In this document: positions 41,234 to 63,108 of the stretch, in pieces | Layout of the letters: the number at the start of each line of letters is the position of its first letter | Position numbering within the stretch: position 1 is the stretch's first letter | Assembly: GCA_964594415.1 (NCBI GenBank) | Contig: CAZQLQ010000001.1 | Coordinates: 28,850-92,849 of the forward strand | Reading direction: 5' to 3' | DNA length: 64,000 bases | From: an uncultured Candidatus Saccharibacteria bacterium | Lineage (GTDB): Bacteria; Patescibacteriota; CPR2; UBA1875; CAIMLA01 | Position numbers and translations under genes: made by a program | The notes under the pieces: model-generated | What the model saw: only the letters and a program-made list of their open reading frames with translations | What the model was told of the DNA's origin: nothing | Databases searched by the model: none

Positions 41234-41239
41234 AAAAGT

Positions 41240-41760: not shown

Positions 41761-41763
41761 GTT

Positions 41764-44187: not shown

Positions 44188-47100
44188 TTGTTTGGATATA
44201 AATTTAATAATTTATATATAAATGCTTGTTCTAATATAAAAAATTATAAAGTTACAAAAAAGCTTGAATATCTTACGGTATTTATATTAGTTCTTAGTAT
44301 GCTTAGCTTTCAAGCATACTCATCAACAGAACTCAGGAAATATTTATTTGGTGCTGGGAATGCATTTGCTGGTATTGAAAACGTTAGCGTTGATGTTGGT
44401 GAGGAAGATACGTGCGTAGTGAGAAGTGATGGCACGGTTTGGTGTTGGGGCTGGAACATGTATGAGAACCGCCTAGGAATACCTACTGTCGAAGGGATGT
44501 TTACTAAAGACGCACTTACACCAATTCAAGTAGTGGGTCCTGGAGGTATTGGATATCTAAATAACGTCAAGACGGTAGAAATAGGAGAAGGCCATACTTG
44601 TGCTTTGAAGAATGATGGTACTGTCTGGTGTTGGGGATATAACTATGAGGGAGAACTCGGTGATAATATGAACGAAGAATATAGTCGGACGCCTGTGCAG
44701 GTTATGGGTGCCGGTGGGGTAGGATTCTTAAGTGATATTGTTGAGATAACTATAGGTTCCGATGCTTTCTCTACTTGTGCTTTGAAGAATGATGGTACTG
44801 TCTGGTGTTGGGGATATAACTGGGCTGGTGAGCTTGGAAACGGTTTGGCTGACGTTCAAAGTAATGTTCCTATCCAGGTTGTCGGTCAGGGTGGTTTGGG
44901 GTATCTAACTAATGTGCGTTCAATATCGATGGGAGAAAATACCACTTGCGCAGCAAAAAACGACGGTACCGTATGGTGTTGGGGTAGTAATTTCGGGGGC
45001 GAACTAGGAAATGGGACGGAAAGTGTTGACAGCTATACCCCGATACAGGTAGTTGGAGTTGGGGGTACGGGGTATTTGCAAAACATCAAGTCAGTCGCGC
45101 TAGATTTTTACTCTTGTGCTTTATCGAACGAAAACACGGTTTTTTGCTGGGGTTATGGTAGTGACGGCGAATTGGGGAATGGACAAAATGTTGATAGTTA
45201 TTCGCCAGTTCAAGTTCTCGGAGTAGGCGGCGACGGATATCTGACGGACGTAAAGAAAATTGGGGTCGGGCAAGGTTTTGCATGTGCTTTGAAAAATGAT
45301 GGAACAGTGAATTGCTGGGGTAGTAATTGGTTTGGAGACGGAGCGCTAGGGGATGGTACTTCAAATGACAGTAATACCCCAGTACAGGTAAAAGACCATA
45401 GCGGTAGCGGAAGTCTTACCGGAATTACTGATTTAGATGTTGGATTTGGAGGTGTTGCGTCAATTAGTAACGATGGGCGGATTTATTTGTGGGGTGATTA
45501 TACTCTTGGTAATGGTACTTGGAACACATCCTTATTGCCAACCGCGGTTTTGTATCAAGGTGAAATTACTAGCTACTTAGATAATGTAATATCTCTTAAC
45601 GTTGGCTCTAATCTTCAGTCTTGTGTAATCAAATCGGATGGTTCATTGTTATGTTGGGGCGTATCTCAATCTATTCTAGAGTCCATTTATCCGAAGAAAA
45701 TTCCAGGCCCTAACGGACTTGGATACATGGATAGTGTGAGATCGGTTGATTGGGGAAACGAACATAGTTGTGCGGTCAAAACTGATGGAACCGTATGGTG
45801 TTGGGGAACGAATGCCTATGGCCAACTAGGAGATGAAAGCTACTCGGATAGTTATACACCCGTCCAAGTGGTAGGCGTTGGAGGAACAGGTTATCTAACC
45901 GATGTAGAAACTGTAACAACTGGACGACGATTTTCTTGTGCGCTTAAAACTGATGGTACGGTTTACTGTTGGGGATGGGGGTATAGAGGTATACTAGGTA
46001 ATAATTCTACAAATAACTCAAATACACCCGTCCAGGTGGTAGGCGTTGGAGGAACAGGTTATCTGACTAATATACTTGATGTTGATACTTTTTGGTTACA
46101 TACTTGCGCAATTAGCTCAAGTGGTAGTGCATATTGTTGGGGTGACAACGCGAATTCCAAGCTAGGAGGAACTGCTAGTGCCTACAGCTCTACGCCAGTG
46201 CAAGTTTATGGTACAGGCGGTGTTGGATATCTTGGCAATATTGATAAAATCGATACCATGGTTTCTAGCTCATGTGCTACATTGAGCGATGGAACCGTTT
46301 GGTGTTGGGGATACAATGGAGGAGGTCAGTTAGGGGACAATACGACTGCTCAACGGGATTATCCAGTTCAGGTTCATGGGGTGAATAACCTAGGTTATTT
46401 GCAGAACGTTCAAGAAACTAGCGGAGGCTGGAATCATAACTGTGCACTTACATTTGACGGACTTGTATATTGTTGGGGAAGAAATCAGGAAGGAGAGCTA
46501 GGTATAAATACTATTATTAATAGCCTTACGCCAGTGCAGGTATTGGGAAATAATGGCGTTGGAGTCTTGGAAAATATTATTGAGATTTCTTCAGGATATG
46601 ATTATTCATGTGCTCTTAATAATAATGGATATGTTTATTGTTGGGGTGGTAATGACGACTACGCTCTTGGAATTGGTTGGAGCCTAGATAAGTTGGTGCC
46701 TGTACGAGTTGCTTCTGAAATAGAGATTTGCGAATTTAGTGCTCTAGGGAGCTCTCTTTGTGCAGATAGCGGATCGTCACCGCCAACCACTATCCCTCCC
46801 ACCACCACTCCTCCTACTCCAACTACAACCAAACCAAAATCATCTCCTCTAACTCCTTTTCAACCCGTAGACGAGAATATCGCAGACGAAACTACACCTA
46901 CAACCAGTACCACAACCACGACAACCAGAGAAGAAACAGCAGAAAAGTCAAACTCTTCTTCGGAGAGCGATTCAGATAATAATAATCATGACGGATTCTT
47001 TAAAACCATTAAATCCTATGTCGTAGCTTTTCTTTCTACCTCATCCGATGCAATAGCTAAAGTAAACTACAAGATAACCTCATACTTCACTTCTTCAAAG

Positions 47101-48414
47101 GGTCTTGGTAACTTTTTGGGGATGGTTCCTCCTGCCCTAGCCAGAGTGTTCCCTTGGCTACTTTTCGCCCTCCTTATCTATCTTATCCGCAGATTAATCA
47201 AACAAACCAAGGAAGAAGGTAAGAACGCTCAAGAGATGATAAAGCTTATCGATCTCGAGAAAGCTATCGGAGTCCAGAAAGAAAACTTCGTCAGATTATC
47301 TTCTCATTACCTAAGAACCCCGTTAACAATCATCTCTACTGGCATTGATCTTATGTTTACCCTGGATAAAGTTGAGAAAGAAAAGCAAACCGACCTCTCA
47401 AACGCCCTTAAAGACCTAAATACCAAAGTAGAGGAGATCTTTTCTGATATATCCTCTAATAGATATCTAAACGAGATAACTATTCCAGATATTAAAGAGG
47501 AGAAGATCAAGATTTATGCCTCTCCTTACTTATGGCTACCGATCATCCTAATCGGAGGTATCTCCCTTCTTACCAACTACTTGTTTATCAATATCGCCAA
47601 GATTGATCTCTACACTATTAATCTTATGACCGAAGTAGCTGCCTTTCTCGTTCTTGCTCAGCTTTTCTTTTCTAACTTCAGGAAACGCCAAACCCAAAGG
47701 ATCAAGAATCAAAAATATGAGAAAGAGCTTAAGCTTCAGAAAGTCATCGATGATGCTAGAAATACCTTCATGGAGCAAGTTGCAAGGGATGTTAATGCAA
47801 AAATGATTCCGTTAGAAACCGTCCTTCCTTCGGTAGGTCAAACAGAACACAAGACTGAGATATACAAAGGCCTCTCCGACCTAAAGCAGATGATCTACAA
47901 ATTCACGCTGATTAGCAGTATCAAATCCGAAGGAGCCCTTATTAAACCGAGAGAAATTGACCTATACCGAACAGTCAACGATTATATCAAGGCTAGGCAA
48001 GAAGATATAAAGGCAAAGGGGATTAAGGTTAAACTTTCTAAATCGGACACAATCATAATAACTGACAAAGATAAGTTCTTGTTCATTATCTTCAGTATCA
48101 TCGATAACGCTATCAAGTTTTCTAAAGACAAAGGAAGCATCATTATCAACTGGGAGACAGTAGATAATCGAACTACCATAACCGTGGAAGACGACGGAAT
48201 TGGAATGACTGAAGAAGCCAAAGACCTTCTCTTTAAGCCTTTCGTTAGGGGAACATCTACCCTTAGATTTGATTATGAAGGCATGGGTACTAACCTTTAT
48301 ATCGCCAAACAGATAGCCAATTATTTAAACGGAGATATTTCCCTAGAATCAGAGATAGATAAAGGAACGAAGGTGAGTGTGGTTTCTTGTAGTTATGGTT
48401 ATAGGGTTGATTGA
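44188..48414 (+). CDS. giant sensor histidine kinase with an extracytoplasmic RCC1-repeat beta-propeller array
   Basis: A TTG start 7 nt after GGAGGG, by analogy with the paralog. A signal anchor is followed by more than 13 RCC1-like blades (GTVWCWGxNxxGELGxG...TPVQV), then a Thr/Pro linker, then TM helices. The C-terminus carries HisKA-like SSHYLRTPLTII and HATPase_c EDDGIGM..GMGTNLYIAKQI. Confidence 0.75.
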   Translation: MFGYKFNNLYINACSNIKNYKVTKKLEYLTVFILVLSMLSFQAYSSTELRKYLFGAGNAFAGIENVSVDVGEEDTCVVRSDGTVWCWGWNMYENRLGIPTVEGMFTKDALTPIQVVGPGGIGYLNNVKTVEIGEGHTCALKNDGTVWCWGYNYEGELGDNMNEEYSRTPVQVMGAGGVGFLSDIVEITIGSDAFSTCALKNDGTVWCWGYNWAGELGNGLADVQSNVPIQVVGQGGLGYLTNVRSISMGENTTCAAKNDGTVWCWGSNFGGELGNGTESVDSYTPIQVVGVGGTGYLQNIKSVALDFYSCALSNENTVFCWGYGSDGELGNGQNVDSYSPVQVLGVGGDGYLTDVKKIGVGQGFACALKNDGTVNCWGSNWFGDGALGDGTSNDSNTPVQVKDHSGSGSLTGITDLDVGFGGVASISNDGRIYLWGDYTLGNGTWNTSLLPTAVLYQGEITSYLDNVISLNVGSNLQSCVIKSDGSLLCWGVSQSILESIYPKKIPGPNGLGYMDSVRSVDWGNEHSCAVKTDGTVWCWGTNAYGQLGDESYSDSYTPVQVVGVGGTGYLTDVETVTTGRRFSCALKTDGTVYCWGWGYRGILGNNSTNNSNTPVQVVGVGGTGYLTNILDVDTFWLHTCAISSSGSAYCWGDNANSKLGGTASAYSSTPVQVYGTGGVGYLGNIDKIDTMVSSSCATLSDGTVWCWGYNGGGQLGDNTTAQRDYPVQVHGVNNLGYLQNVQETSGGWNHNCALTFDGLVYCWGRNQEGELGINTIINSLTPVQVLGNNGVGVLENIIEISSGYDYSCALNNNGYVYCWGGNDDYALGIGWSLDKLVPVRVASEIEICEFSALGSSLCADSGSSPPTTIPPTTTPPTPTTTKPKSSPLTPFQPVDENIADETTPTTSTTTTTTREETAEKSNSSSESDSDNNNHDGFFKTIKSYVVAFLSTSSDAIAKVNYKITSYFTSSKGLGNFLGMVPPALARVFPWLLFALLIYLIRRLIKQTKEEGKNAQEMIKLIDLEKAIGVQKENFVRLSSHYLRTPLTIISTGIDLMFTLDKVEKEKQTDLSNALKDLNTKVEEIFSDISSNRYLNEITIPDIKEEKIKIYASPYLWLPIILIGGISLLTNYLFINIAKIDLYTINLMTEVAAFLVLAQLFFSNFRKRQTQRIKNQKYEKELKLQKVIDDARNTFMEQVARDVNAKMIPLETVLPSVGQTEHKTEIYKGLSDLKQMIYKFTLISSIKSEGALIKPREIDLYRTVNDYIKARQEDIKAKGIKVKLSKSDTIIITDKDKFLFIIFSIIDNAIKFSKDKGSIIINWETVDNRTTITVEDDGIGMTEEAKDLLFKPFVRGTSTLRFDYEGMGTNLYIAKQIANYLNGDISLESEIDKGTKVSVVSCSYGYRVD
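46811..48385 (+). repeat. 1575-bp block nucleotide-identical to 61523-63097 (linker, TM and kinase module of both RCC1 kinases)
   Basis: Identical protein translations are seen on three independent frames (track ORFs 47307/47548/47982 equal 62019/62260/62694). The offset is constant at 14712 bp. Identity breaks after 'gtgagtgtggttt'. Confidence 0.85.
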
Positions 48415-48466
48415 CAAAGAACAAAAACGAATCTACAATATTTTTGTCAAAGAGATTTTAATTTAG

Positions 48467-49669
48467 ATGAATATACTACTAAATACGAGGGACCTGTTAA
48501 ACGGGATTTTTGGACGTAAGAATTTCCAGTTCACTTTTTATTTATTGGCCTTTTTTATTATGATACTTGGTGCTAAAGGTGCATATAGCGACAGTTTTGT
48601 CGCTGTTGTTAATACTCCTGTAATTATTAAATATGACGATAAAAAAATTGATTTCGTATCAACGCAAAATACAGTAGGGGGTGCTATCCGTCAAAGCGGG
48701 ATAATATTTGGGGAGTACGATATTACCGAACCGCCCGTTGAATCAATTTTAACTGGAAAGAAAACTGAAATTAGGGTTATTCGAGCCGTACCAGTTCTCA
48801 TATCCGATAACAATCAGGAGCACATTGCTTATTCGGCATATTCTGAACCTAGCGAAATTTTAAAACAGTTGGATATTAATTTTTATCCAGAAGACAAAAT
48901 TTCTGCAGAGTTAATCCTTGATCCTGCTGAGTATAATGCAGCTGGTCAACTCCTTATTATTAAAAGAGCCCCCTCATACAAAGTAAATGTTGATGATGAA
49001 ACTAAGACTATTCGTAGTTGGGGTGGTACTATAGGAGATGTTTTATCTGATGGCCAAATATCTCTTGGCCAGAGGGACATCATCGAGCCTACGACAGAAT
49101 TAAGTTCATATAATATTTTAGAAATAAATATAACAAGGGTCAACACGGCAGACGTATGGGAAGAAAATATAATACCCTTCAGCACTATAACACAAAAAGA
49201 CTATAACATGTTCGAAGGACAAACCAGGATAACTCAAGAAGGAGTGAACGGTTCAAAAAAAGAGTTGATACATATTGTTTACCATAACGGCGTTGAAGTG
49301 GATAGAAGTGTAGTCTCTTCAGAGACAATCTCTTCGCCGACTACAGAAATTGTTATAAAGGGAGTGAAGCCCTATAATGCTGGGATGTGGTGGGATACGA
49401 TTGTTGCAGCAAGTAATATATATGGTGTTGATCCCTCTAAAATGTATAAAGTTATGATTTGTGAAAGCCATGGAAATCCCAATGCAGGGACATATTACAA
49501 AGGGTTATATCAATATTCCGCGAGTACGTGGGCAGGTGCTAGTAGCTTGTATCCTGGAGGAGTATATGCGGGAGCCGCGATTACTGACGGAACGGCTCAG
49601 ATATACGTAACAGCATGGAAAGTATCAAAGCAAGGCTGGAGTGCTTGGCCAACCTGTGGGTATATGTAG
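48467..49669 (+). CDS. RpfB-like protein (DUF348, G5, and Rpf/transglycosylase-like domain)
   Basis: An N-terminal TM, a DUF348-like segment, a G5-like segment, and a C-terminal ICESHGNPNAGTYYKGLYQYSASTWAGA. The last matches the Rpf signature CESGGNW..YYGGLQFS.STW. Confidence 0.6.
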   Translation: MNILLNTRDLLNGIFGRKNFQFTFYLLAFFIMILGAKGAYSDSFVAVVNTPVIIKYDDKKIDFVSTQNTVGGAIRQSGIIFGEYDITEPPVESILTGKKTEIRVIRAVPVLISDNNQEHIAYSAYSEPSEILKQLDINFYPEDKISAELILDPAEYNAAGQLLIIKRAPSYKVNVDDETKTIRSWGGTIGDVLSDGQISLGQRDIIEPTTELSSYNILEINITRVNTADVWEENIIPFSTITQKDYNMFEGQTRITQEGVNGSKKELIHIVYHNGVEVDRSVVSSETISSPTTEIVIKGVKPYNAGMWWDTIVAASNIYGVDPSKMYKVMICESHGNPNAGTYYKGLYQYSASTWAGASSLYPGGVYAGAAITDGTAQIYVTAWKVSKQGWSAWPTCGYM

Positions 49670-49726
49670 ATTCATATTCAAAAAAAGTGCTTATTCAAGT
49701 ATAATTAGGCCCGAAAGGGTTATTTT

Positions 49727-50560
49727 ATGGATCTAACTGATATTACAGATATCAAAAAAACGCTTAAGGCATTTGGAGTCCACAGTAGAAAAGAGCTTGG
49801 CCAGCATTTCTTAATTGATAGTACGGCACTTTCTAATATTATAGAAGCAGCGGACATCAGAAATGATGATACCATACTTGAGATTGGACCAGGGATGGGT
49901 ATTTTAACAAGAGAACTTTGTAGAAGAGCAAAAAGAGTCGTAGCTGTTGAATTAGATGAAGCAATGGTAGGGATAGTAAAGACGACTTGTATCAGGTATT
50001 CAAACCTAGAAGTAAAAAACCAGGATATAATGAAATATAATCCTTCAGATTTAGGCAGATACAAACTGGTTGCCAATCTCCCGTACTACATTACCTCGAT
50101 GGTTATAAGGCGTTTTTTGGAAACCGAGAACAAACCTGAAGAAATGGTAATACTTGTTCAAAAAGAAGTTGCAGAGAGGATATGTGCCAAGCCCTCAAGA
50201 ATGAGTATTCTTGCAGTTTCGGTACAATTTTATGGAGAGCCGACTATAATAGCAAAAGTTCCGCACTCCTCATTTTTCCCAACACCAGGTGTAGATTCTG
50301 CAATTCTCAAGATCAGGCTCTATACTAAGCCACTCTTTCCTAGCGTTGAGCCTGATATTTTTTTTCGAATTGTTAAGGCAGGCTTTAGCGAGAAGAGGAA
50401 GCAGCTAATAAACTCAATTTCTGGGGGGCTAAACATTAGCAGGGATTTTACCGAGAAGCTTCTGTCCGAAGCAGGAATAGATATGATGGCCAGAGCAGAA
50501 TCGCTTTCTATGATTGATTGGCACAATCTTTACAAGGTTTATATGCGAAATAAAGTTTAA
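49727..50560 (+). CDS. rsmA: 16S rRNA (adenine1518/1519-N6)-dimethyltransferase
   Basis: The KELGQHFLID start motif and GPGMGILT SAM motif. Confidence 0.9.
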   Translation: MDLTDITDIKKTLKAFGVHSRKELGQHFLIDSTALSNIIEAADIRNDDTILEIGPGMGILTRELCRRAKRVVAVELDEAMVGIVKTTCIRYSNLEVKNQDIMKYNPSDLGRYKLVANLPYYITSMVIRRFLETENKPEEMVILVQKEVAERICAKPSRMSILAVSVQFYGEPTIIAKVPHSSFFPTPGVDSAILKIRLYTKPLFPSVEPDIFFRIVKAGFSEKRKQLINSISGGLNISRDFTEKLLSEAGIDMMARAESLSMIDWHNLYKVYMRNKV

Positions 50561-50577
50561 TATTTAGGAAAAGGATT

Positions 50578-50850
50578 ATGAAAAGATACAAGATACAAGT
50601 TTTTGGTGACGTTCAGGGTGTTTTCTATCGTCATATAATATCTGATAAGGCCAAGCAATTAAATTTAAATGGTTGGTGCAGAAACGAGCCAGATGGGAGT
50701 GTTTTTATAATCATAGAAAGTGACAATGAAGCGAAAATGAAGAATTTTTTAAAAGCTTGTAAAAAAGGATCACCTCTTTCAAATATAGAGCGTGTTGATA
50801 TGGAAGAGGAGGATTACCTGGAAGACCTAGAAGGTTTTGAAGTCAGATGA
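50578..50850 (+). CDS. acyP: acylphosphatase
   Basis: The VQGVFYR and GWCRN motifs; 90 aa. Confidence 0.85.
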   Translation: MKRYKIQVFGDVQGVFYRHIISDKAKQLNLNGWCRNEPDGSVFIIIESDNEAKMKNFLKACKKGSPLSNIERVDMEEEDYLEDLEGFEVR

Positions 50851-51512
50851 AGGGGTCTTTATATATTGTTTCTACGCCTATTGGAAATTTGGGCGATATA
50901 ACCTTGAGGGCAGTCGAAACCTTCAAGAAAGTCGATTTGATAGCATGTGAAGATACGAGACATTCACTTGGTCTACTTAACCATCTTGAAATAAAAAAGC
51001 CGCTAATAAGTTTTCACCAGTTTTCCGGAATTTCTAAGGTTGAAAAACTACTAGAGTTATTGAATGAAGGAAAGAGTATTGCATTGATTTCAGATGCAGG
51101 AACGCCAGGCGTGAGTGATCCGGGGGAGCAAATTATTAAGGCTGCTATTAATGAAAATATTAATGTAATTCCGGTACCGGGAGTCTCGGCTGCAATTACG
51201 GCTCTTTCTGTTTCTGGAATTGATACAAGTGAATTTATTTTTATCGGTTTTTTGCCGCATAAAAAAGGTAGACAGACAAAGCTTAAAGAATTAGCTCTCG
51301 AAAAGCGAACAATTATTTTGTACGAATCGCCGTTTAGAGTCAAAAAAATGTTGAATGAATTATTAGAATTTTTCGGTGACAGGAAGGTTTGTGTATCAAG
51401 AGAGCTTACGAAAAAATTTGAGGAAACGCTGCGCGGAAAGATTTCTGAGGTTTTACCACAAATAAAAGAAAAAGGCGAATTTGTAGTTGTTGTAGAGGCC
51501 AGAAATGATTAA
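50847..51512 (+). CDS. rsmI: 16S rRNA (cytidine1402-2'-O)-methyltransferase
   Basis: LYIVSTPIGNLGDITLRA and the tetrapyrrole-methylase fold. Confidence 0.85.
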   Translation: MKGSLYIVSTPIGNLGDITLRAVETFKKVDLIACEDTRHSLGLLNHLEIKKPLISFHQFSGISKVEKLLELLNEGKSIALISDAGTPGVSDPGEQIIKAAINENINVIPVPGVSAAITALSVSGIDTSEFIFIGFLPHKKGRQTKLKELALEKRTIILYESPFRVKKMLNELLEFFGDRKVCVSRELTKKFEETLRGKISEVLPQIKEKGEFVVVVEARND

Positions 51513-51588
51513 GGTGCGGGAATACTATTTAAGACTCCCGAACAATTCCAAAATGATTTAAAATCTATACTAGACGAGGAGAATAATC

Positions 51589-53061
51589 ATGCAGAATAAA
51601 TATTTTTATGTAACAACCCCAATATATTATGTGAATGCGGCACCGCATTTAGGCAGTGCCTATACGACTATAGCTGCAGACGTTTTGGCTAGGCATTATC
51701 GATCTAAATACGGAAAAGAAAATGTTTTTTTTATGACTGGAACTGACGAACATGGAGCAAAAATACAGGAAATAGCCGAAAAAGCAGGCAAGTCACCCAA
51801 AGAGTTTACGGACGAAATCTCGGAAGAATTTAAGAAAGCCTGGAAAAACTTGAATATTAATTACGATTATTTTATTCGCACCACTGATAAGCATCACGAA
51901 GATGCTGTTGCAAAGATTACTCAACAACTTTATGATCAAGGCGATATTTACAAAGGAAATTACCAGGCGCTTTATTGCGTAGGTTGTGAGCAGTATAAGA
52001 CCAAATCAGAGCTTGTTGACGGCAAAATTTGTCCTGACCATAACCGCGAATGTGAAATTCACGAAGAAGAGGCGTATCTTTTCAAGCTTTCGAAATATGA
52101 GGATCGGCTTAAAGAGTTGATAGAAAAAGACGAGATCTTGATTCGTCCCGAAACACGTAAGAACGAGATTCTTTCGTTTATTCGAGGTGGTCTTGAAGAT
52201 GTTGCGGTTTCTAGGAAAAAGGAAAATGTATCATGGGGAGTTGATCTTCCTTTTGACAAAAATCATACGGTCTATGTTTGGATAGATGCGTTCTTAAATT
52301 ATCTTACGGGCTTGGGTTGGCCAGAAGACACTGCAAAATCTGATAATTTTTGGCCGGCAGATGTTCAATTGATGGCAAAGGATATAATTCGCGTACATTC
52401 GACAATTTGGCAGGCGATGCTTCTAGCTCTCGGATTGCCTACGTCTAAACAGCTTTTTGTCCACGGTTATTTTACGGTAAATGGCAAGAAGATGAGTAAA
52501 ACTCTCGGCAACGTACTCGAACCAAATGCCCTTGTTGAAAAATTTGGTGCAGATGCGGTTCGATATGCAGTTCTAAGAGAATTCCCATTCGGAACAGATG
52601 GCGATGTTTCGGAAGAAAAAATCGCGGATAGATATAACTATGATTTAGCGAATGGGGTCGGAAATTTATTGCAGAGGACAATTGTTTTAGTTAATAAATT
52701 TAATATTCCAGTAACAAATAAAAAGATGGAGCTTGTAGGGAACGATGTGGGGGGTACTTGGAAACACAAAGATGAAATTAACAATATGATAGAAAATCTT
52801 GATTTCTCCAATGCTCTTTTTGATATCTGGACGTATTATATAAAACCAGCTAATGAGCTAATGGAAACCGAAAAACCATGGGAGTTGGCAAAGACTGACA
52901 TAGAAGGGGCAACGAAGGTTCTTGATTATTGTATGAAAAATCTAAATACTATTTCTGAGTTGATTGCACCATTTATGCCAGATACTTCAGAGAAAATGAA
53001 AAAACAGTTAGAAACATTAGTGCCTGAGCCATTATTTCCAAGATTACAAAAGGAGGAGTAA
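51589..53061 (+). CDS. metG: methionine--tRNA ligase (short form)
   Basis: A HIGH-like HLGSAYT motif, the KMSKT motif (KMSKTLGN), and Zn-knuckle Cys residues. Confidence 0.9.
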   Translation: MQNKYFYVTTPIYYVNAAPHLGSAYTTIAADVLARHYRSKYGKENVFFMTGTDEHGAKIQEIAEKAGKSPKEFTDEISEEFKKAWKNLNINYDYFIRTTDKHHEDAVAKITQQLYDQGDIYKGNYQALYCVGCEQYKTKSELVDGKICPDHNRECEIHEEEAYLFKLSKYEDRLKELIEKDEILIRPETRKNEILSFIRGGLEDVAVSRKKENVSWGVDLPFDKNHTVYVWIDAFLNYLTGLGWPEDTAKSDNFWPADVQLMAKDIIRVHSTIWQAMLLALGLPTSKQLFVHGYFTVNGKKMSKTLGNVLEPNALVEKFGADAVRYAVLREFPFGTDGDVSEEKIADRYNYDLANGVGNLLQRTIVLVNKFNIPVTNKKMELVGNDVGGTWKHKDEINNMIENLDFSNALFDIWTYYIKPANELMETEKPWELAKTDIEGATKVLDYCMKNLNTISELIAPFMPDTSEKMKKQLETLVPEPLFPRLQKEE

Positions 53062-53065
53062 ATAT

Positions 53066-55049: not shown

Positions 55050-55093
55050 TAGTTGTTTTTTATCGTTTATAATTTAGAAAATGGGGGATAACT

Positions 55094-55927
55094 ATGGATG
55101 AAAGAAAAGGGGAAACTATTGAGCAGATAATGCGCAGGGATGAATCTGAAGAATTAAGAAAAATTAATAAGGTTAAGGCAAAAAAAGGGCTTTCGGGTAT
55201 TTGGGTTTCAATTATTTCTGTTGCTATAACTCTAGCTGTTGTTGCAGGCGGCTATTTCGGTTGGCAGTATTATGGCAAGCAAAAGGGAGATGTTTCCGCA
55301 ACAACAACTACTACTACTTCTACTACAATCGATATAGAATCTTCAACGACTACTACGACAAAAGTATCCGAAACGAACAGCATTATCTATGTTAATACAA
55401 CGGACGGTTTGCGTTTAAGAGCTACCGCCTCAACTTCTGCTGAAATATTAGAAACAATGCCTTTTGGTGCGAAGTTAACTTTAGCCGAAACTAGCGGCGA
55501 ATGGTCAAAGGTTACTCATGGCAGTAAAACAGGTTGGTGTATGACGGCTTATACTTCAAAGACAAATCCTCTTATTTTTAACAATACTGACTATGGATTT
55601 CGTCTAACTTTCCCGGAATCTTGGTATAGTGTTGATCTAACCAAAAGAACAACTGTAGATTCTGGCGCGACTGCATATTTTGATGCGTTTTTATCCACGA
55701 GCGATACTACTTGGGATTCTGGCTTGGGAAAATCATCTATGTTTGTAATTGGGATTTACACAAAAACACAGTGGGCGGTGGTTTCGGCGGGGGAAATTAA
55801 GCCTGGACTTCTTGGGGAGGGATCTAATTATGTTTATACATATTCTCCTTCGCAAGCTACGCCTAGTGATTTAATGAGTAAAAGAGATGATATAAATAAT
55901 ATTGTTAAAACATTTGAGGTATTGTAA
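55094..55927 (+). CDS. membrane-anchored SH3b-domain surface protein (paralog of the 34872 gene)
   Basis: A TM helix, a poly-Thr linker, an SH3b-like segment (GLRLRATASTSAEILE..GEWSKVTHGSKTGWC), then a DYGFRLTFPESW domain comparable to NGFKIKYPKGW. Confidence 0.55.
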   Translation: MDERKGETIEQIMRRDESEELRKINKVKAKKGLSGIWVSIISVAITLAVVAGGYFGWQYYGKQKGDVSATTTTTTSTTIDIESSTTTTTKVSETNSIIYVNTTDGLRLRATASTSAEILETMPFGAKLTLAETSGEWSKVTHGSKTGWCMTAYTSKTNPLIFNNTDYGFRLTFPESWYSVDLTKRTTVDSGATAYFDAFLSTSDTTWDSGLGKSSMFVIGIYTKTQWAVVSAGEIKPGLLGEGSNYVYTYSPSQATPSDLMSKRDDINNIVKTFEVL

Positions 55928-56125
55928 ATGAGTAAAATTGATCTTGAAACTCTAGAAAAAGAAGTAACAACTTGCGAGTCGCTATCAAAGAATAGTGAGT
56001 GTAAGTGGGGAAAATGCAAGGACTGCGGTGTGGTTCCGTTACTCTATAAATTGGGTATAGACAGATTATTGGAAGAACCTGAAGATATTTTAGAGGCGAA
56101 AAGACGGCATCTAACTGATATATAA
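55928..56125 (+). CDS. small Cys-rich hypothetical protein
   Basis: 65 aa with a CKWGKCKDCG motif. Uncertain whether it is expressed. Confidence 0.3.
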   Translation: MSKIDLETLEKEVTTCESLSKNSECKWGKCKDCGVVPLLYKLGIDRLLEEPEDILEAKRRHLTDI

Positions 56126-56191
56126 TTCTTGACAAATGTTACCTTAAAAGTTACCCTAGATGTAGGGTAACTTTTTATTTGAGGAAAAAAA

Positions 56192-56419
56192 ATGAAGGAA
56201 AAATTTATAACAACAAATGAGCTTGCCAATGATGCTTCAAAGATTTTGCGTAACTTAAAAAAAGGCGAAGGGACAGTAATCTTAAGGTATTCAGAACCGG
56301 TAGGCGTGCTTATATCTTACGAAGATTATAAGAGGATTGAAAATTTAGAAGTTGAGTTTATTCAAGAATGCAAAACATGTTTGGCCAATACCAAGAGAAT
56401 GAGAAAGGATTTAGAATAA
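56192..56419 (+). CDS. Phd/YefM-like antitoxin-fold protein (orphan)
   Basis: ..GTVILRYSEPVGVLISYEDYKRIENLE resembles the Phd/YefM N-terminal fold. No toxin gene follows. Confidence 0.45.
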   Translation: MKEKFITTNELANDASKILRNLKKGEGTVILRYSEPVGVLISYEDYKRIENLEVEFIQECKTCLANTKRMRKDLE

Positions 56420-57639
56420 TGATTTATATGGATCATGCAGCCACTACGCCAGTCAGTAAAAAGGTTTTTGAGGAAATGGAGCCTTATTTTTCTAAGTTTT
56501 TTGGTAATGCTTCGAGCGTGTATTCTGTAGGCTGTAAAGCAAGAGCAGTTGTAGAAAATTCTCGCGAAAAAATTGCTGGCTTGATTGGTGCTGAAAAACC
56601 GGGAGAAGTTATTTTCACAAGCGGGGCAACTGAAGCAAACAATTTGGCAATAAAAGGTGTAGCTTTTTATGTATCACAAGTCTTGAAGAAAAAACCGCAT
56701 ATCATTATTTCTTCAATTGAACATCATTGTGTTTTGGATACTGCGAAATACCTTGAAAAGTATTTTGGCTTTGAGGTAACATATTTGCCGGTGAATAAAG
56801 AAGGGGTTGTCGACCTAGAATTTTTGAAAAATTCAATAAAAGACAACACGGTAATGGTTTCTGTTATGTACGGGAACAATGAAATGGGGGCAGTAGAACC
56901 GATTGCTGAAATTGGGAATATTGTAAAAGAAGCGAAAGAAAAGAGAAAAGAAGAAGATTCATTGCCAATTATTTTTCATACCGATGCGGTTCAGGCATTT
57001 CAGTACATCGATATCGATGTGAATAAGCTTGGCATAGATATGCTTTCTCTTACAGCTCATAAATTTTATGGCCCTAAAGGCATTGGAATTTTATACGTGA
57101 AGGATGGAGTTAGATTTTTGCCGCAACAGCAAGGGGGTTCTCAAGAGCAGGGACGTAGAGCAGGTACCGAAAATGTTCCCTACATTGTCGGAATGTCTAC
57201 CGCGATGCAGGAAGCTGTGAGAAACCGTAAAAAAAGCACAGAGGAAGTAAAAAAACTTAGAGATTATATGATAAAAAGAATTCTTACAGAGATACCAAAT
57301 GTCGAACTTATTGGGCCAAAAGATGCTGAAAACAGATTGCCGCACATTTCAAATTTTTTATTCAAAGGAGTTGAGGGCGAGTCTATTCTTCTCAATCTGG
57401 ATATATTCAGTATATGTGCGTCATCTGGTTCTGCCTGCACATCCGGATCGTTGGAATCTTCTCACGTGACAAGAGCGATGGGGTATTCTCATATGGAGTC
57501 ACATGGTGCTATCCGTTTCAGCTTTGGTGCTCTTTCCAGCGAAGACGACATAGACAAACTAATGCAGTATTTGCCGAATATCGTAGAAAAATTAAGGGCG
57601 ATGAGCCCGATAAAAGGAGATATATGCCAATCGCAATAA
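56419..57639 (+). CDS. iscS: cysteine desulfurase (IscS/NifS family)
   Basis: The PLP-Lys motif SLTAHKFYGPKG and active-site SSGSACTSGS. I chose the start MIYMDHAATTPV. Confidence 0.9.
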   Translation: MIYMDHAATTPVSKKVFEEMEPYFSKFFGNASSVYSVGCKARAVVENSREKIAGLIGAEKPGEVIFTSGATEANNLAIKGVAFYVSQVLKKKPHIIISSIEHHCVLDTAKYLEKYFGFEVTYLPVNKEGVVDLEFLKNSIKDNTVMVSVMYGNNEMGAVEPIAEIGNIVKEAKEKRKEEDSLPIIFHTDAVQAFQYIDIDVNKLGIDMLSLTAHKFYGPKGIGILYVKDGVRFLPQQQGGSQEQGRRAGTENVPYIVGMSTAMQEAVRNRKKSTEEVKKLRDYMIKRILTEIPNVELIGPKDAENRLPHISNFLFKGVEGESILLNLDIFSICASSGSACTSGSLESSHVTRAMGYSHMESHGAIRFSFGALSSEDDIDKLMQYLPNIVEKLRAMSPIKGDICQSQ

Positions 57640-58235
57640 ATTATAAAATTTGTGACAATTTCTCTGAGTGTCCATGTATAGCAGCTTGCCCTTGCGACGT
57701 GATTTACTATGATGAAATAAAGGGGAAATTAGTAGCCGATAACAGTAAATGCAAGTCTTGCGGCAAATGTGTTGGGGCGTGTGAGATTGGTGCAATTTCA
57801 TTAGCAAAAACCGATGAAGAGCTAACGACAATTTTAAAAGAGATAGAAGACGATCCTAGAAAAGCTTCGGATTTATTTGTCGATAGGTACGGTGCCCAGC
57901 CGATTCTTGAAACATTTTTAATAGAAGAAATAAATTTAGAAAAGAGATTAGACAATACTAATAAATTGGTTGTGGTTGAGCTATTTGACGAAAACTCGAT
58001 CCAATGCCTACTTCACTCAATACCGATAAAAGACTTATTTGACATAGAAGATTATGAGTATTATAGAGTTGAGATAAAGAATAGTGATCTTACAAGCAAA
58101 TATTCAGTAAAAAATTTGCCTTCACTGTTATTCTTTAAAAAGGGGAATCTGTTTGACAAAATTGAGGGATATTATGCCGATACTCAAGTAAATGAGTTTA
58201 AGCAAAAAATTAAAACTATCGTTAAGGAAAGATAA
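57624..58235 (+). CDS. 4Fe-4S ferredoxin-domain protein fused to a thioredoxin-like (no CxxC) domain
   Basis: I chose the internal ATG at 57624. CPCIAACPCD and CKSCGKCVGACE motifs. It sits between iscS and iscU. Confidence 0.5.
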   Translation: MPIAINYKICDNFSECPCIAACPCDVIYYDEIKGKLVADNSKCKSCGKCVGACEIGAISLAKTDEELTTILKEIEDDPRKASDLFVDRYGAQPILETFLIEEINLEKRLDNTNKLVVVELFDENSIQCLLHSIPIKDLFDIEDYEYYRVEIKNSDLTSKYSVKNLPSLLFFKKGNLFDKIEGYYADTQVNEFKQKIKTIVKER

Positions 58236-58624
58236 TGGCTGAATTGTATAACAAAGAAGTGATGGATCATTTTATGAACCCCAGAAATGTGGGTGAGATT
58301 GAAGATGCAAATGGAGTGGGGCAGGTCGGAAATCCGAGATGTGGGGACATTATGAAAATATATATTGATATTGAAAAAGAAGGCGGAAAAGAAATAATTA
58401 AAAATATAAAGTTTCAAACATTTGGCTGCGGTGCGGCGATTGCTACATCAAGTATGATTACTGAACTTGTGAAGGGCAAGTCAATCGAAGAAGCCGAAAA
58501 GGTTACAAATAAAGACGTCGCGAAAGCACTTCATGGGTTGCCACCTGTCAAGATGCACTGCTCAAATCTTGCCGCTTCAGCTCTAAGAAAAGCAATTGAA
58601 GACTATAAGGCCAAAAAGATTTAA
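58235..58624 (+). CDS. iscU: Fe-S cluster assembly scaffold IscU/NifU-like
   Basis: The GNPRCGD, GCGAAIA and HCSNLAA conserved Cys motifs; 129 aa. Confidence 0.9.
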   Translation: MAELYNKEVMDHFMNPRNVGEIEDANGVGQVGNPRCGDIMKIYIDIEKEGGKEIIKNIKFQTFGCGAAIATSSMITELVKGKSIEEAEKVTNKDVAKALHGLPPVKMHCSNLAASALRKAIEDYKAKKI

Positions 58625-58695
58625 TTTCATTTACCTTTTTCTTTGTGATTGCTAATATATATCCTAGTAGAATATGTTTATATTTTGGAGGGTAA

Positions 58696-61600
58696 GTGCT
58701 GTCAATTAAGCCCAGACTGGCTAGTTTATATAAGAAAAAATGTTCTGATATAAAAGATTTTAAAGTTACTAAAAAATTTGAATATTTTGTATTTTTTGCT
58801 TTTTTTATCAGTTTGTTAAGTTCTCAAGCTTATTTACCTGCAATCTTAAAATCTGATCTGCTCAAGATAAAAACTGTTCTTGCTGACGGAACGCCTGTTC
58901 AAGTTTCTGCTGGTAATGGTCATGCCTGCATTGTCAAAAGCGATGGAACTGTCTGGTGTTGGGGGGCAAATTATTATGGACAGTTAGGTGATAGTACGGA
59001 TGAGACTCGACATACCCCCATCCAGGTTGTTGGAGTGGGTGGAATCGGATTTTTGACAGACATCGTTGCTGTAAATGCTGGATGGCAGCACACTTGTGGA
59101 CTTAAAAATGACGGAACTGTTTATTGCTGGGGAGATAATGCGGATGGAGAACTTGGAAACAATGATTATACAGATAGTTATGTTCCTGTTCAGGTACTAG
59201 GAGTTGGCGGAACAGGATTTCTAAATGATATTAAGGCTATCGGAGCCGGGTACAATGACTCTTGTGCACTAACAAACAGTGGCTTGATGTATTGTTGGGG
59301 AGATAATGCGGATGGCCAGTTAGGGGACAATTCAACGACTGGAAGCCCTGTTCCTGTACAGGTGGTAGGTGCCGGAGGCGCAGGATTTCTAAATGATATT
59401 AGTAAGATTGAGCTTGGTCTTGGTCATGCATGTGCGGTTAAGAATGACGGAACGGCTTATTGTTGGGGGGATAGTTATACCCCTTTGGGTGACGGCACTT
59501 CGAATAGTAGTCAAGTCCCTGTACAGGTGGTAGGCGTTGGCGGAGTCGGGTTCTTAAGCAATATAGCAGATATTACTACGGACGACGGTTTTTCGTGCGC
59601 TTTAACAAATGATGGCTATGTATATTGTTGGGGGGATAACGGTGATGGCCAACTTGGAGATGGTAATGGCGGAACTTACGGGGATGAATCACTTACTCCT
59701 GTTCAGGTTCTTGGTGTGGGAGGTGTGGGGCTTCTCTCAAATATTCAGCACATAAGCAATGGAACTATGCATGCCTGTGCATTAGACTCAGGAGGTAATG
59801 TATATTGTTGGGGATGGAAAGAAGAAACTGGCACTAATGACGGTTCCTGGGATCCGCAAACTACACCAATACAGACACATGGCTTAGAAGATGTAGGGTT
59901 TCTATCGGATATCTTTACTTTCGCCGCAGGAGATTATTTTACTGTAGCAATTGATACAGCCGGAACTGTATATAGTTGGGGTGAAAATTATGAAGGGGAT
60001 CTCGGTGATTGGACCGAAGTTGATAGATATGTTCCTGTTAAGGTGGTCTCAAGTGCTTCCTCGGCTGGGTATCTAGATAATGTCGTAGGCGTTGGGACGG
60101 CTGATGATGGATCCTGTATTATTAAGGATGACGGAACAGTTTGGTGCTGGGGGAATGGCGAACCCGTGCCTGTCCAATTGAGGGGACCAGGAGGAGTGGG
60201 TTTCTTTGAGGATGCCGTTTCGATTAGCAAAAGTGCAATGGGTAATCATTTTTGTGTTGTTAAAAGCGACGGAACGGTATGGTGTTGGGGGAGTAACTCA
60301 GATGGACAACTCGGTGATGGTACAACAACAAGTAGCTATGATTATCCTATACAAGTTGTCGGAGAAGGTGGTGTGGGGTATTTGACAGATGTTAAGATGG
60401 TCTCGGGTGCGTATTTCGGTACTTGTGCTCTTAAAAATGATGGTACGGTGTGGTGCTGGGGGTATAATGGCGGCGGTGCATTAGGAAATAACAGCACTAC
60501 TGATGTGTATACTCCGGTGCAAGTACATGGAGTTAATGACGTCGGATTTTTAACTGACATAAAATATATTTCAACTGGCGGATATCACGGCTGTGCAATA
60601 AAAACGGATGATTCTCTATACTGTTGGGGAAGTAATAGTAGCGGTCAACTTGGTGATAATACGACTTTAAATAAATTGACTCCCATCCAAGTCTTAGGAG
60701 CTGGCGGCATTGGTAATCTTACCGATGTCAGAAGCGTGGCGATGGGGTGGCTGCATACATGCGCTTCAAAAAACGACGGTACTGCTTATTGTTGGGGGAG
60801 AAATTATGCGGGTCAAGTCGGCAATGGCGTAATCGGCGGATTCGGTTCTCATGTAGATGCTCCTAGCCAAGTTATAGGAGTAGGAGGGGTAGGATATTTA
60901 ACAGGCGTTGATACGGTAGCAGCATCCAGAGACGGGTCTTATGCTAAGATGCTTGATGATACGGCGTTTTATTGGGGAGGTACCCCTACACAGCGTTCAG
61001 GTGTTGAAGACGAGCAGTATCTTGTTAATGTTGCTGATATTGCAGGAGGTTATTCGCATCTAGTTTCTCTTTTGAATGACGGAACGGTATATTGTACGGG
61101 TTGGGGTAGTGGTAACGGATGGGACAGCGATTCTTTGGTTTGGTCAGGTATTAATGCATGTTATTTCAATGCCTATGGAGACCCAATTTGCTCTAGTGGT
61201 CCGTCTCCTTCACAAAGTGCTGCCAATTCTGTCATTTCAGGCAGTGAAACAGGTAACTTAGTTACGATTACTGTAACAATCCACGATACGGACGATAATC
61301 CATATACTTCAGGTGGTGACACGGTCACAGTCCTCATAACTGGAGCAAATCCATCTACTCCATCAGTAATAGATAATAGTGACGGAACCTATACTGTAAC
61401 TTATACTTCAACAAGTGACGGTACTGACATAGTAACAGCTACTTTAAACGGAGTTGCAATTGGTAATGATACCGATGGGGTAAGTGACGGAGTCTATCAT
61501 TTGAATGTTACTGCTCCTTTTTCTCCTACTCCAACTACAACCAAACCAAAATCATCTCCTCTAACTCCTTTTCAACCCGTAGACGAGAATATCGCAGACG

Positions 61601-63108
61601 AAACTACACCTACAACCAGTACCACAACCACGACAACCAGAGAAGAAACAGCAGAAAAGTCAAACTCTTCTTCGGAGAGCGATTCAGATAATAATAATCA
61701 TGACGGATTCTTTAAAACCATTAAATCCTATGTCGTAGCTTTTCTTTCTACCTCATCCGATGCAATAGCTAAAGTAAACTACAAGATAACCTCATACTTC
61801 ACTTCTTCAAAGGGTCTTGGTAACTTTTTGGGGATGGTTCCTCCTGCCCTAGCCAGAGTGTTCCCTTGGCTACTTTTCGCCCTCCTTATCTATCTTATCC
61901 GCAGATTAATCAAACAAACCAAGGAAGAAGGTAAGAACGCTCAAGAGATGATAAAGCTTATCGATCTCGAGAAAGCTATCGGAGTCCAGAAAGAAAACTT
62001 CGTCAGATTATCTTCTCATTACCTAAGAACCCCGTTAACAATCATCTCTACTGGCATTGATCTTATGTTTACCCTGGATAAAGTTGAGAAAGAAAAGCAA
62101 ACCGACCTCTCAAACGCCCTTAAAGACCTAAATACCAAAGTAGAGGAGATCTTTTCTGATATATCCTCTAATAGATATCTAAACGAGATAACTATTCCAG
62201 ATATTAAAGAGGAGAAGATCAAGATTTATGCCTCTCCTTACTTATGGCTACCGATCATCCTAATCGGAGGTATCTCCCTTCTTACCAACTACTTGTTTAT
62301 CAATATCGCCAAGATTGATCTCTACACTATTAATCTTATGACCGAAGTAGCTGCCTTTCTCGTTCTTGCTCAGCTTTTCTTTTCTAACTTCAGGAAACGC
62401 CAAACCCAAAGGATCAAGAATCAAAAATATGAGAAAGAGCTTAAGCTTCAGAAAGTCATCGATGATGCTAGAAATACCTTCATGGAGCAAGTTGCAAGGG
62501 ATGTTAATGCAAAAATGATTCCGTTAGAAACCGTCCTTCCTTCGGTAGGTCAAACAGAACACAAGACTGAGATATACAAAGGCCTCTCCGACCTAAAGCA
62601 GATGATCTACAAATTCACGCTGATTAGCAGTATCAAATCCGAAGGAGCCCTTATTAAACCGAGAGAAATTGACCTATACCGAACAGTCAACGATTATATC
62701 AAGGCTAGGCAAGAAGATATAAAGGCAAAGGGGATTAAGGTTAAACTTTCTAAATCGGACACAATCATAATAACTGACAAAGATAAGTTCTTGTTCATTA
62801 TCTTCAGTATCATCGATAACGCTATCAAGTTTTCTAAAGACAAAGGAAGCATCATTATCAACTGGGAGACAGTAGATAATCGAACTACCATAACCGTGGA
62901 AGACGACGGAATTGGAATGACTGAAGAAGCCAAAGACCTTCTCTTTAAGCCTTTCGTTAGGGGAACATCTACCCTTAGATTTGATTATGAAGGCATGGGT
63001 ACTAACCTTTATATCGCCAAACAGATAGCCAATTATTTAAACGGAGATATTTCCCTAGAATCAGAGATAGATAAAGGAACGAAGGTGAGTGTGGTTTTAA
63101 ACAAATAA
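58696..63108 (+). CDS. giant sensor histidine kinase with an RCC1-repeat beta-propeller array plus a Big-like domain (paralog of 44188-48414)
   Basis: A GTG start 7 nt after GGAGGG. An RCC1-like repeat array (GTVWCWGxNxxGQLGDG), then an Ig-like segment (TITVTIHDTDDNPYTSGGDTVTV..). The linker/TM/HisKA/HATPase module is identical to the paralog. Confidence 0.75.
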   Translation: MLSIKPRLASLYKKKCSDIKDFKVTKKFEYFVFFAFFISLLSSQAYLPAILKSDLLKIKTVLADGTPVQVSAGNGHACIVKSDGTVWCWGANYYGQLGDSTDETRHTPIQVVGVGGIGFLTDIVAVNAGWQHTCGLKNDGTVYCWGDNADGELGNNDYTDSYVPVQVLGVGGTGFLNDIKAIGAGYNDSCALTNSGLMYCWGDNADGQLGDNSTTGSPVPVQVVGAGGAGFLNDISKIELGLGHACAVKNDGTAYCWGDSYTPLGDGTSNSSQVPVQVVGVGGVGFLSNIADITTDDGFSCALTNDGYVYCWGDNGDGQLGDGNGGTYGDESLTPVQVLGVGGVGLLSNIQHISNGTMHACALDSGGNVYCWGWKEETGTNDGSWDPQTTPIQTHGLEDVGFLSDIFTFAAGDYFTVAIDTAGTVYSWGENYEGDLGDWTEVDRYVPVKVVSSASSAGYLDNVVGVGTADDGSCIIKDDGTVWCWGNGEPVPVQLRGPGGVGFFEDAVSISKSAMGNHFCVVKSDGTVWCWGSNSDGQLGDGTTTSSYDYPIQVVGEGGVGYLTDVKMVSGAYFGTCALKNDGTVWCWGYNGGGALGNNSTTDVYTPVQVHGVNDVGFLTDIKYISTGGYHGCAIKTDDSLYCWGSNSSGQLGDNTTLNKLTPIQVLGAGGIGNLTDVRSVAMGWLHTCASKNDGTAYCWGRNYAGQVGNGVIGGFGSHVDAPSQVIGVGGVGYLTGVDTVAASRDGSYAKMLDDTAFYWGGTPTQRSGVEDEQYLVNVADIAGGYSHLVSLLNDGTVYCTGWGSGNGWDSDSLVWSGINACYFNAYGDPICSSGPSPSQSAANSVISGSETGNLVTITVTIHDTDDNPYTSGGDTVTVLITGANPSTPSVIDNSDGTYTVTYTSTSDGTDIVTATLNGVAIGNDTDGVSDGVYHLNVTAPFSPTPTTTKPKSSPLTPFQPVDENIADETTPTTSTTTTTTREETAEKSNSSSESDSDNNNHDGFFKTIKSYVVAFLSTSSDAIAKVNYKITSYFTSSKGLGNFLGMVPPALARVFPWLLFALLIYLIRRLIKQTKEEGKNAQEMIKLIDLEKAIGVQKENFVRLSSHYLRTPLTIISTGIDLMFTLDKVEKEKQTDLSNALKDLNTKVEEIFSDISSNRYLNEITIPDIKEEKIKIYASPYLWLPIILIGGISLLTNYLFINIAKIDLYTINLMTEVAAFLVLAQLFFSNFRKRQTQRIKNQKYEKELKLQKVIDDARNTFMEQVARDVNAKMIPLETVLPSVGQTEHKTEIYKGLSDLKQMIYKFTLISSIKSEGALIKPREIDLYRTVNDYIKARQEDIKAKGIKVKLSKSDTIIITDKDKFLFIIFSIIDNAIKFSKDKGSIIINWETVDNRTTITVEDDGIGMTEEAKDLLFKPFVRGTSTLRFDYEGMGTNLYIAKQIANYLNGDISLESEIDKGTKVSVVLNK
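61523..63097 (+). repeat. second copy of the 1575-bp identical block
   Basis: See 46811-48385. Confidence 0.85.

Follow-up and report, generated by a model that had tools for sequence, protein, structure and literature searches.

How could two sensor kinase genes, whose sensor parts diverged long ago, come to share an output part that is identical in every base? The question is raised by the stretch of 64,000 nucleotides analysed here (the window), which belongs to an uncultured Candidatus Saccharibacteria bacterium and encodes two giant histidine kinases with N-terminal RCC1 propellers (gene 1 and gene 2; Table 1). The answer that we favour, and which we regard as reasonably probable as a whole, is that the 1575-bp repeat formed by their 3' parts is a true feature of this genome and goes back to a recent, non-reciprocal copy of one complete transmitter module between two old paralogous RCC1 sensor-kinase genes.

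The original prediction for this locus had claimed base-for-base identity of positions 46811-48385 and 61523-63097 at a constant offset of 14712, and indeed 0 mismatches were found over the 1575 bp in a base-by-base comparison. The same repeat pair was recovered by an independent repeat search of the window. At neither end can the exact match be extended by a single base, and the 100-bp windows flanking the block at the same offset show only 19-35% identity, which is the random level. A chance origin of the 1575-bp identity can be dismissed. The block makes up the 3' third of two open reading frames (ORFs) that are both intact, in frame and on the + strand, and its 525 codons are the last ones of both genes apart from short unique tails. 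The claim that the identity ends nine codons before the stops is correct for gene 1, which closes with SCSYGYRVD, whereas gene 2 closes after three codons with LNK. Furthermore, the identical part does run from the linker through the transmembrane (TM) helices to the ATPase domain, as had been proposed, and represents a complete transmitter module.

The N-terminal parts give a very different picture. They are colinear, and the divergence noted at the outset for the RCC1 arrays amounts to 44.5% protein and 51.9% DNA identity over 831 aligned codons. Among the 370 identical residues, 230 (62%) are encoded by different codons, and the synonymous sites look saturated. The longest exact DNA word common to both N-terminal parts has 17 nt, and the 3' flanks of the genes are unrelated. 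Only the leader regions are more similar (78% DNA identity over 76 nt); they share the motif CS[ND]IK[ND][YF]KVTKK followed by a hydrophobic helix, a combination found in none of 20 other inspected RCC1 or module proteins. This leader motif, unique to the two genes, shows that they are true paralogues, and judging from the saturation they are old ones. Hence, something separate and recent must have made the last 525 codons identical. Two candidate processes that could act on the N-terminal parts were rejected: mosaic conversion tracts were not found within the RCC1 arrays, where the best local matches (65-88%) are short and fall on blade consensus motifs, and a diversity-generating retroelement does not fit a divergence that spans 830 codons and every codon position. 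The translation of gene 1 most likely starts at the TTG at 44188, with a GGAGGG ribosome-binding site ahead, and that of gene 2 at the GTG at 58696, which is preceded by the same GGAGGG. Both proteins (P0514 and P0243) have database records from the same NCBI contig, which is 234,769 bp long. It must be mentioned that the gene 1 product had been clustered under a spurious 52-aa representative (P0515), whose contig, L092, is unrelated.

A second line of evidence comes from codon usage, for which the 46 other ORFs of the window served as background. The module without its linker (47113-48384 and 61825-63096) forms an island with a GC content at third codon positions (GC3) of 0.448, compared to a background mean of 0.328 (standard deviation 0.030, maximum 0.406), and none of 230 ORF-internal windows of equal length reached this value. 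The amino-acid-stratified Mantel-Haenszel test found 178 G/C-ending codons against 127.5 expected (z = 5.5), which rules out amino acid composition as the cause. C-ending codons are enriched and G-ending ones are not, i.e. the ratio of purine-ending codons is normal in the module, while NNC/(NNC+NNT) amounts to 0.53 as compared to 0.267 ± 0.056 in the background (maximum 0.393); the N-terminal parts of both kinase genes stay at the background level (0.27 and 0.25). Nor can expression level explain the bias, since codon usage is normal over the 5' two-thirds of these mRNAs. When a single change point in the use of C-ending codons was fitted, it was placed at 46768 in gene 1 (support interval 46654-46909; junction at 46811) and at 61576 in gene 2 (support interval 61528-61702; junction at 61523). 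Within the resolution of this fit, the change points coincide with the identity junctions. The composition thus deviates with boundaries at the ends of the segment; a donor lineage was not found among the matches listed from protein collections and contig scans. The homologous modules in two other genomes, L093 and L091, show no enrichment relative to their neighbours, hence the codon bias is not intrinsic to the module family. Module-like codon usage as such occurs in other Patescibacteria, for example in L093. In our favoured reading, the module has a history that differs from the rest of both genes and possibly came from another Patescibacterium.

How the module was copied can be judged from the edges of the block. 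As expected for gene conversion, the stretch clearly stands out from the N-terminal parts by its similarity (100% versus 51.9% DNA identity). However, there is no alignable sequence outside the block edges, and accordingly no homology at the tract ends: at the 5' edge an immunoglobulin (Ig)-like domain of gene 2 faces the linker of gene 1, and at the 3' edge the tails are unrelated. Gene conversion or domain swapping had been proposed at the outset. From this proposal, the idea of one output on different sensors holds, and it does so family-wide (see below), while classical homology-driven conversion fits poorly, because the edges lack both outside homology and a zone of decaying identity and because the codon island begins at the junction. 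The pattern agrees better with one copy-and-paste event involving a module of foreign composition. It could have been a one-off, either gene-conversion-like or an illegitimate 'module transplant' from one gene to the other. The Pro/Thr linker and the C-ending codons of gene 1 extend approximately 40 nt upstream of the junction, which hints weakly at gene 1 as the donor. Direction, mechanism of copying and foreign origin are what we infer from these patterns.

The genomic context is consistent with a feature that can persist. The window is Patescibacterial chromosomal DNA with a glycolysis operon, PPDK, a 2-oxoacid:ferredoxin oxidoreductase and tRNA genes, and the UvrD homologues named by source include the Patescibacteria group, Saccharimonadales and CPR2. 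The two repeats are spaced by 13 kb and enclose genes for an Rpf-like G5/transglycosylase, KsgA, a TP_methylase, MetRS, an MFS protein, TatD, an SH3 protein, a cysteine desulfurase, a Fer4/Trx-like protein and NifU. Deletion by recombination between the repeats would be probably lethal, as these single-copy housekeeping genes would be lost, so the arrangement can persist. A comparison with orthologous loci had been suggested in the original prediction as a check on whether the kinase modules are normally divergent; in the nearest relatives, L089 and L090 (UvrD 83% identical), a kinase gene is present at neither locus. In L089, a gap of 89 bp separates NifU from the CvpA/CAP gene downstream, at a place where the window has 4.5 kb with gene 2, and in L090 MreB comes directly after UvrD. 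Moreover, UvrD lies in both relatives downstream of an AlaX-like gene and not upstream of the Rpf-KsgA-MetRS block. Judged from this comparison, gene 1 sits at a synteny break and gene 2 is a clean insertion. Since the kinase genes are missing at the loci of the relatives, both are lineage-specific accessory genes.

Several points weigh against the favoured reading. Neither gene is adjoined by a response regulator, and the only receiver domain of the window is a stand-alone one at 4332-4721 (-), 40 kb away. The codon bias consists mostly of a change from T to C at third positions and little of one from A to G, an asymmetry that stays unexplained, and something else than horizontal transfer could have produced the bias. 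A donor sequence for the foreign module was not found, its best outside match having 52-55% protein identity. The perfect identity could partly be a polishing artefact. Finally, module copies were surveyed in a 64-kb window of a 234.8-kb contig.

The main biological rival is long-running concerted evolution with biased conversion, in which repeated RecA-dependent conversion would have kept the modules homogenised ever since an old duplication while the sensors diverged, and in which the raised GC3 would result from GC-biased conversion. Interlocus gene conversion and concerted evolution are documented for bacterial paralogues such as tufA/tufB, and for prokaryotic paralogues in general, though as rare cases (PMC6053082). 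The sharp contrast between saturated N-terminal parts and an identical C-terminal part fits this scenario, the DNA identity is graded from the leader (78%) over the propellers (approximately 52%) to the module (100%), and GC3 is raised in the block alone. Nevertheless, we regard it as rather unlikely. Eroded or decaying homology is absent outside both edges, GC-biased conversion does not predict a strand-asymmetric bias with C-ending codons increased and G-ending ones normal, and an old, stable resident pair is hard to reconcile with nearest relatives that have neither gene at the orthologous loci. The likeness to the tuf-type case lies in two dispersed paralogous stretches that are identical in DNA within unrelated surroundings; unlike there, only a part of each gene is concerned here, the edges are abrupt without flanking homology and the codon usage is atypical.

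An assembly or polishing artefact, by which similar but non-identical modules were made identical in the consensus or a repeat was traversed along wrongly joined paths, has to be considered for a metagenome-type contig of an uncultivated Patescibacterium, the more so as an exact repeat of 1.6 kb is difficult for short-read assemblers. Yet all four junctions of the block run into unique sequence, namely syntenic housekeeping DNA, the flanking and enclosed genes occur once each and are in part syntenic with assemblies made independently, both ORFs are in frame and have different natural tails, and the number of Ns in the window is 0. An assembler cannot produce abrupt boundaries or a change point in composition; at most it erases a few differences within a near-identical block. 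Hence, mis-assembly is unlikely as the cause of the repeat itself and homogenisation of near-identical copies by polishing is possible; as a full explanation of the locus, we consider an artefact quite improbable. A recent duplication of a whole gene followed by replacement of the sensor of one copy via a third RCC1 gene elsewhere, which would profit from the repetitive and recombinogenic blade arrays (neighbouring blades with 89-91% DNA identity), from the many RCC1 surface proteins in Patescibacteria and from the presence of the Ig-like domain in one gene only, is very improbable, since the leader is 78% and not 100% identical, so that the swap must take in the 5' end, and the composition island is left wholly unexplained. 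A programmed rearrangement, such as a shufflon or an invertible sensor switch, was rejected as well, given that neither inverted repeats nor a recombinase between or beside the repeats were found, and Rfam matches in the window are three tRNAs only, which leaves no RNA element to consider.

If the recent module copy is accepted, the next question is what was copied and onto which sensors. Both N-terminal parts are dominated by RCC1 repeats. WD40_RLD scores 397 and 575 bits in the two genes (cut-off 150), and RCC1 and RCC1_2 each match with 9-13 stretches; within the array of gene 1, Pfam finds 12 stretches of RCC1_2 and three of WD40_RLD. Gene 1 has 12 blade motifs and gene 2 has 14, which repeat every 56 aa or so; in the DNA of gene 1, this spacing recurs as nucleotide repeat families with a period of approximately 168 nt. 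Each protein thus has multiple RCC1 repeats, and the approximately 14 blades predicted per protein could form seven-bladed propellers. The Ig-like domain that is restricted to gene 2 sits directly upstream of the identity junction. Adjacent blades of gene 1 (44595-44660 and 44772-44837, 45854-45906 and 46022-46074) share 89-91% DNA identity, and their sequences suggest recent blade duplication or intragenic homogenisation. At the protein level, the RCC1 parts share 41-48% identity with a large number of giant proteins, secreted or located at the surface, from Patescibacteria, Omnitrophota and other groups. Only one of the 120 best RCC1 matches to gene 2 also contains HATPase_c, namely the window's own protein, and a fusion of RCC1 propellers to a kinase appears to be rare. 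A description of RCC1-kinase fusions or of Patescibacterial kinases with such an architecture was not found in the literature, which does not prove its absence.

The order of elements in the module was derived from hydropathy, an AlphaFold2 model and the alignment to solved kinases. The linker is followed by a first transmembrane helix (TM1), a first dimerization and histidine phosphotransfer (DHp) hairpin (DHp-A), two further helices (TM2 and TM3), a second hairpin (DHp-B) and the catalytic and ATP-binding (CA) domain. The model of the module has a mean predicted local distance difference test score (pLDDT) of 71.7, with values of about 80-90 over the TM, DHp and CA regions; in this prediction, TM1 runs as one long helix into DHp-A and TM3 continues into DHp-B. 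DHp-A carries the H-box SSHYLRTPLT with His165, which aligns to the H-box of the solved kinase HK853. In phmmer searches against the PDB, DHp-B and CA together cover the whole DHp-CA core of HK853, and DHp-A aligns separately to its H-box. The residue of DHp-B at the position of the HK853 histidine is Arg325. The top Foldseek matches are class I histidine kinase cores. HATPase_c was detected with 70-72 bits (cut-off 26.4), the N, G1, F and G2 boxes are present, and D431/N432, D460/G462/G464, F474/F477 and G490/G492 are invariant in the family alignment. The HisKA model reached only 17 bits, under its cut-off of 26.9, and no NCBIfam model scored above cut-off for the module. Charged residues, read from the sequence, border the cytoplasmic ends of TM1, TM2 and TM3, and this pattern agrees with a topology in which the propellers face outwards and the two hairpins plus the CA domain lie inside. 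Compared with class I histidine kinases, the proteins possess the boxes of the CA domain and an H-box histidine within a DHp hairpin, but the His-bearing DHp is not the one directly N-terminal of the CA domain. For this reason we call them a putative new architectural form of sensor kinase.

The same layout recurs widely. An exhaustive HMMER search with the module returned 280 cluster representatives at E < 1e-30, and the split layout defines an unnamed Patescibacterial family with at least 280 cluster representatives (proteins P0363-P0507 among them). In the 150 best matches listed, the module is C-terminal, and many of the proteins are giant (885-4656 aa). Among the 140 aligned representatives, His165 is kept in 134, and the column of DHp-B equivalent to the histidine is variable: the five commonest residues cover approximately 81 of the 140 and histidine is not one of them. 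The ectodomains differ strongly. Scans of the N-terminal parts of 10 members found Kelch together with Big_7, PD40, InlB B-repeats, Big_7 alone or nothing recognisable, and approximately 20 shorter members carry Cys-rich 'DVCPNI' repeats, one of them named Saccharimonadales by its source. Where neighbourhoods were read (L091, L093 and L082), the relatives are orphan kinases among housekeeping genes. A near-identical module was not found elsewhere in the protein collections, and in scans of genome and metagenome contigs identity did not exceed 33% among the matches listed. In the nearest outside homologue of the module (L081, positions 1-722), the ORFs of ectodomain and module lie in different frames within the linker, at a coverage of 2.7x, which points to a sequencing error or else to a true frameshift. 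We also considered whether contig ends of relatives mark repeat-induced breaks. Neither L082, which starts inside TM1, nor the linker frameshift of L081 at its low coverage is informative in this respect.

A bolder reading of the family, which we put forward only tentatively and consider somewhat unlikely to hold in full, is that the split-DHp transmitter represents a Patescibacterial mobile output cassette that travels from genome to genome and is grafted there onto giant surface proteins of an adhesin-like type, thereby turning them into contact or ligand sensors. The two copies in the window would then be a snapshot of such a grafting.

From the layout, a working model can be proposed. The ectodomain would place approximately 14 RCC1 blades outside the cell, in gene 2 supplemented with the Ig-like stalk, on a Pro/Thr/Ser-rich linker of approximately 100 residues. 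Ligand binding or surface contact at the propellers would be passed through the linker to TM1 and from there directly into DHp-A. The TM2-TM3 hairpin would re-enter the membrane and, together with DHp-B, hold the CA domain, which is predicted to phosphorylate the conserved phospho-acceptor His165 on DHp-A. Given their identical transmitters, the two sensors would be expected to act on one and the same phosphorylation partner, i.e. two inputs would feed one output, and heterodimers of the gene 1 and gene 2 products could form. Kinase activity, a shared response regulator and a role in the sensing of ligands or host contact are predictions made from sequence.

The proposed architecture can be compared with known systems. 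With class I kinases of the HisKA/HK853 type the proteins share the N/G1/F/G2 boxes, the H-box S-H-x-L-R-T-P-L-T and hairpins that are continuous with TM helices, and their best sequence and fold matches are the cores of HK853, WalK, CpxA, ZraS and CusS. Unlike in class I kinases, TM2-TM3 and the His-less DHp-B separate DHp-A from the CA domain, HisKA stays sub-threshold, an NCBIfam match is lacking and no response regulator is adjacent. In CheA (domain P3), DivL and RetS, a His-less helical dimerisation hairpin stands beside the CA domain and the acceptor histidine is located on a separate element. DivL and RetS are also among the Foldseek-type fold matches to the module. The likeness to the CheA type consists in a His-less hairpin adjoining the CA domain with the acceptor histidine elsewhere; in contrast to it, the acceptor here is an H-box of the HisKA type and not a histidine phosphotransfer (HPt) domain, and the arrangement is tethered to the membrane on both sides. 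Beyond the CA domain, no sequence relation to CheA-type kinases or pseudo-kinases was found by phmmer against the PDB. Histidine kinases are generally known for the swapping of sensor domains on a conserved transmitter and for lineage-specific expansion. The family resembles this domain shuffling, since one transmitter family is combined with many unrelated extracellular domains and the kinases are orphans, but the two genes differ from it by 100% DNA identity within one genome and by a unit that includes the linker and three TM helices. The RCC1 surface proteins of Patescibacteria and Omnitrophota have similar double RCC1 propellers and differ by the kinase fusion seen here.

Table 1. Positions in the window of the two kinase genes, of their parts and of the DNA enclosed by the direct repeat
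Feature	Position	Strand	Basis or details
Gene 1, RCC1-propeller sensor histidine kinase, 1408 aa (P0514)	44188..48414	+	ORF; Pfam WD40_RLD, RCC1 and HATPase_c
Leader of gene 1 with hydrophobic N-terminal anchor or signal sequence	44188..44322	+	motif CS[ND]IK[ND][YF]KVTKK
Gene 1 extracellular RCC1 blade array (predicted)	44440..46700	+	12 strict-motif blades; roughly two seven-bladed propellers
Copy 1 of the identical block, transmitter module	46811..48385	+	identity, hydropathy, AlphaFold2 helices, HK853 alignment, family conservation
Pro/Thr/Ser-rich linker	46813-47112	+	module residues 1 to approximately 100, disordered
TM1	47131-47202	+	residues 107-130
DHp-A hairpin	47203-47454	+	residues 131-214; His165 codon CAT at 47305-47307
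TM2	47524-47592	+	residues 238-260
TM3	47614-47673	+	residues 268-287
DHp-B hairpin, His-less	47674-47916	+	residues 288-368; Arg325 codon at 47785-47787
HATPase/CA domain	47950-48381	+	residues 380-523
Gene 1 unique tail, SCSYGYRVD (9 codons) and stop	48386..48414	+	
Single-copy housekeeping genes enclosed by the direct repeat	48467..58624	+	Pfam; synteny with L089
Gene 2, RCC1-propeller sensor histidine kinase, 1470 aa (P0243)	58696..63108	+	ORF; Pfam; 100% database match
Gene 2 extracellular RCC1 blade array (predicted)	58954..61150	+	14 blade motifs
Ig-like domain (Invasin_D3 / Filamin / Big_1), gene 2 only	61234..61467	+	Pfam; gap in the alignment of gene 1
Copy 2 of the identical block	61523..63097	+	sub-parts as in copy 1, shifted by +14712
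Gene 2 unique tail, remainder of LNK (3 codons) and stop	63098..63108	+	

Some further observations concern the surroundings of the kinase genes. Relative to L089 and L090, UvrD is relocated (regions 41909-44118, 52771-58617 and 63151-63985 of the window were compared). The MFS gene at 53066-54262 is without counterpart in L089, where the end of MetRS runs straight into TatD, and L089 has an additional PhdYeFM antitoxin gene upstream of the cysteine desulfurase gene. Upstream of UvrD, a non-coding stretch of approximately 1 kb (40984-41950) is densely filled with short elements resembling miniature inverted-repeat transposable elements (MITEs), of the type GTCATTCTG...CGAAGAATCTC, and coincides with the synteny break at this place. 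The stretch also contains a direct repeat of 142 bp (41342-41483 and 41748-41889) with 90% identity. Elements related to the MITE-like ones occur at 484-771 (86% matches), and a similar-looking element follows UvrD in L089 at approximately 12170-12300, as seen by eye and unaligned; the MITE-like elements had no match in Rfam. Two more histidine kinases are encoded in the window, at 10214-12895 (+) and 14117-15490 (+), one of them with a HisKA_7TM region and PAS, and none of the kinases in the window adjoins a DNA-binding response regulator. A cluster of minus-strand ORFs at 15561-18707, without Pfam match except for a type IV pilin N-terminal methylation motif at 17207-17626, may be a pilin or pseudopilin locus. 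A small ORF at 40998-41234 (+), shorter than the 95 aa required for the ORF list, which follows three oxidoreductase subunit genes and has Cys patterns resembling two 4Fe-4S cluster motifs, probably encodes the delta subunit of the oxidoreductase.

The copying event itself belongs to a known class of phenomena, and the parts worth following are the split-DHp family and the composition island. For practical purposes, the locus can serve as a test case when assemblies are validated, with its perfect direct repeat of 1.6 kb around essential genes of a streamlined genome. With regard to signalling, an acceptor histidine set apart from the catalytic domain would challenge the textbook DHp-CA arrangement, a prediction that can be tested by mutagenesis. 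If the transmitter really proves to be a mobile cassette, it would imply a new coupling between ectodomain and autophosphorylation, in which the CA domain acts on a histidine held between membrane anchors. Cultivated Patescibacteria are described as living attached to host cells (PMC11623550). Together with the adhesin-like nature of the ectodomains (RCC1, Kelch, PD40, InlB repeats, Ig), this lifestyle makes the kinases candidate host-contact sensors. Above all, the locus would provide a dated snapshot of a sensor kinase gaining a new input, which is usually inferred only from old and diverged families: an entire output module, together with linker and membrane helices, appears to have been copied between two genes whose sensors remain different.

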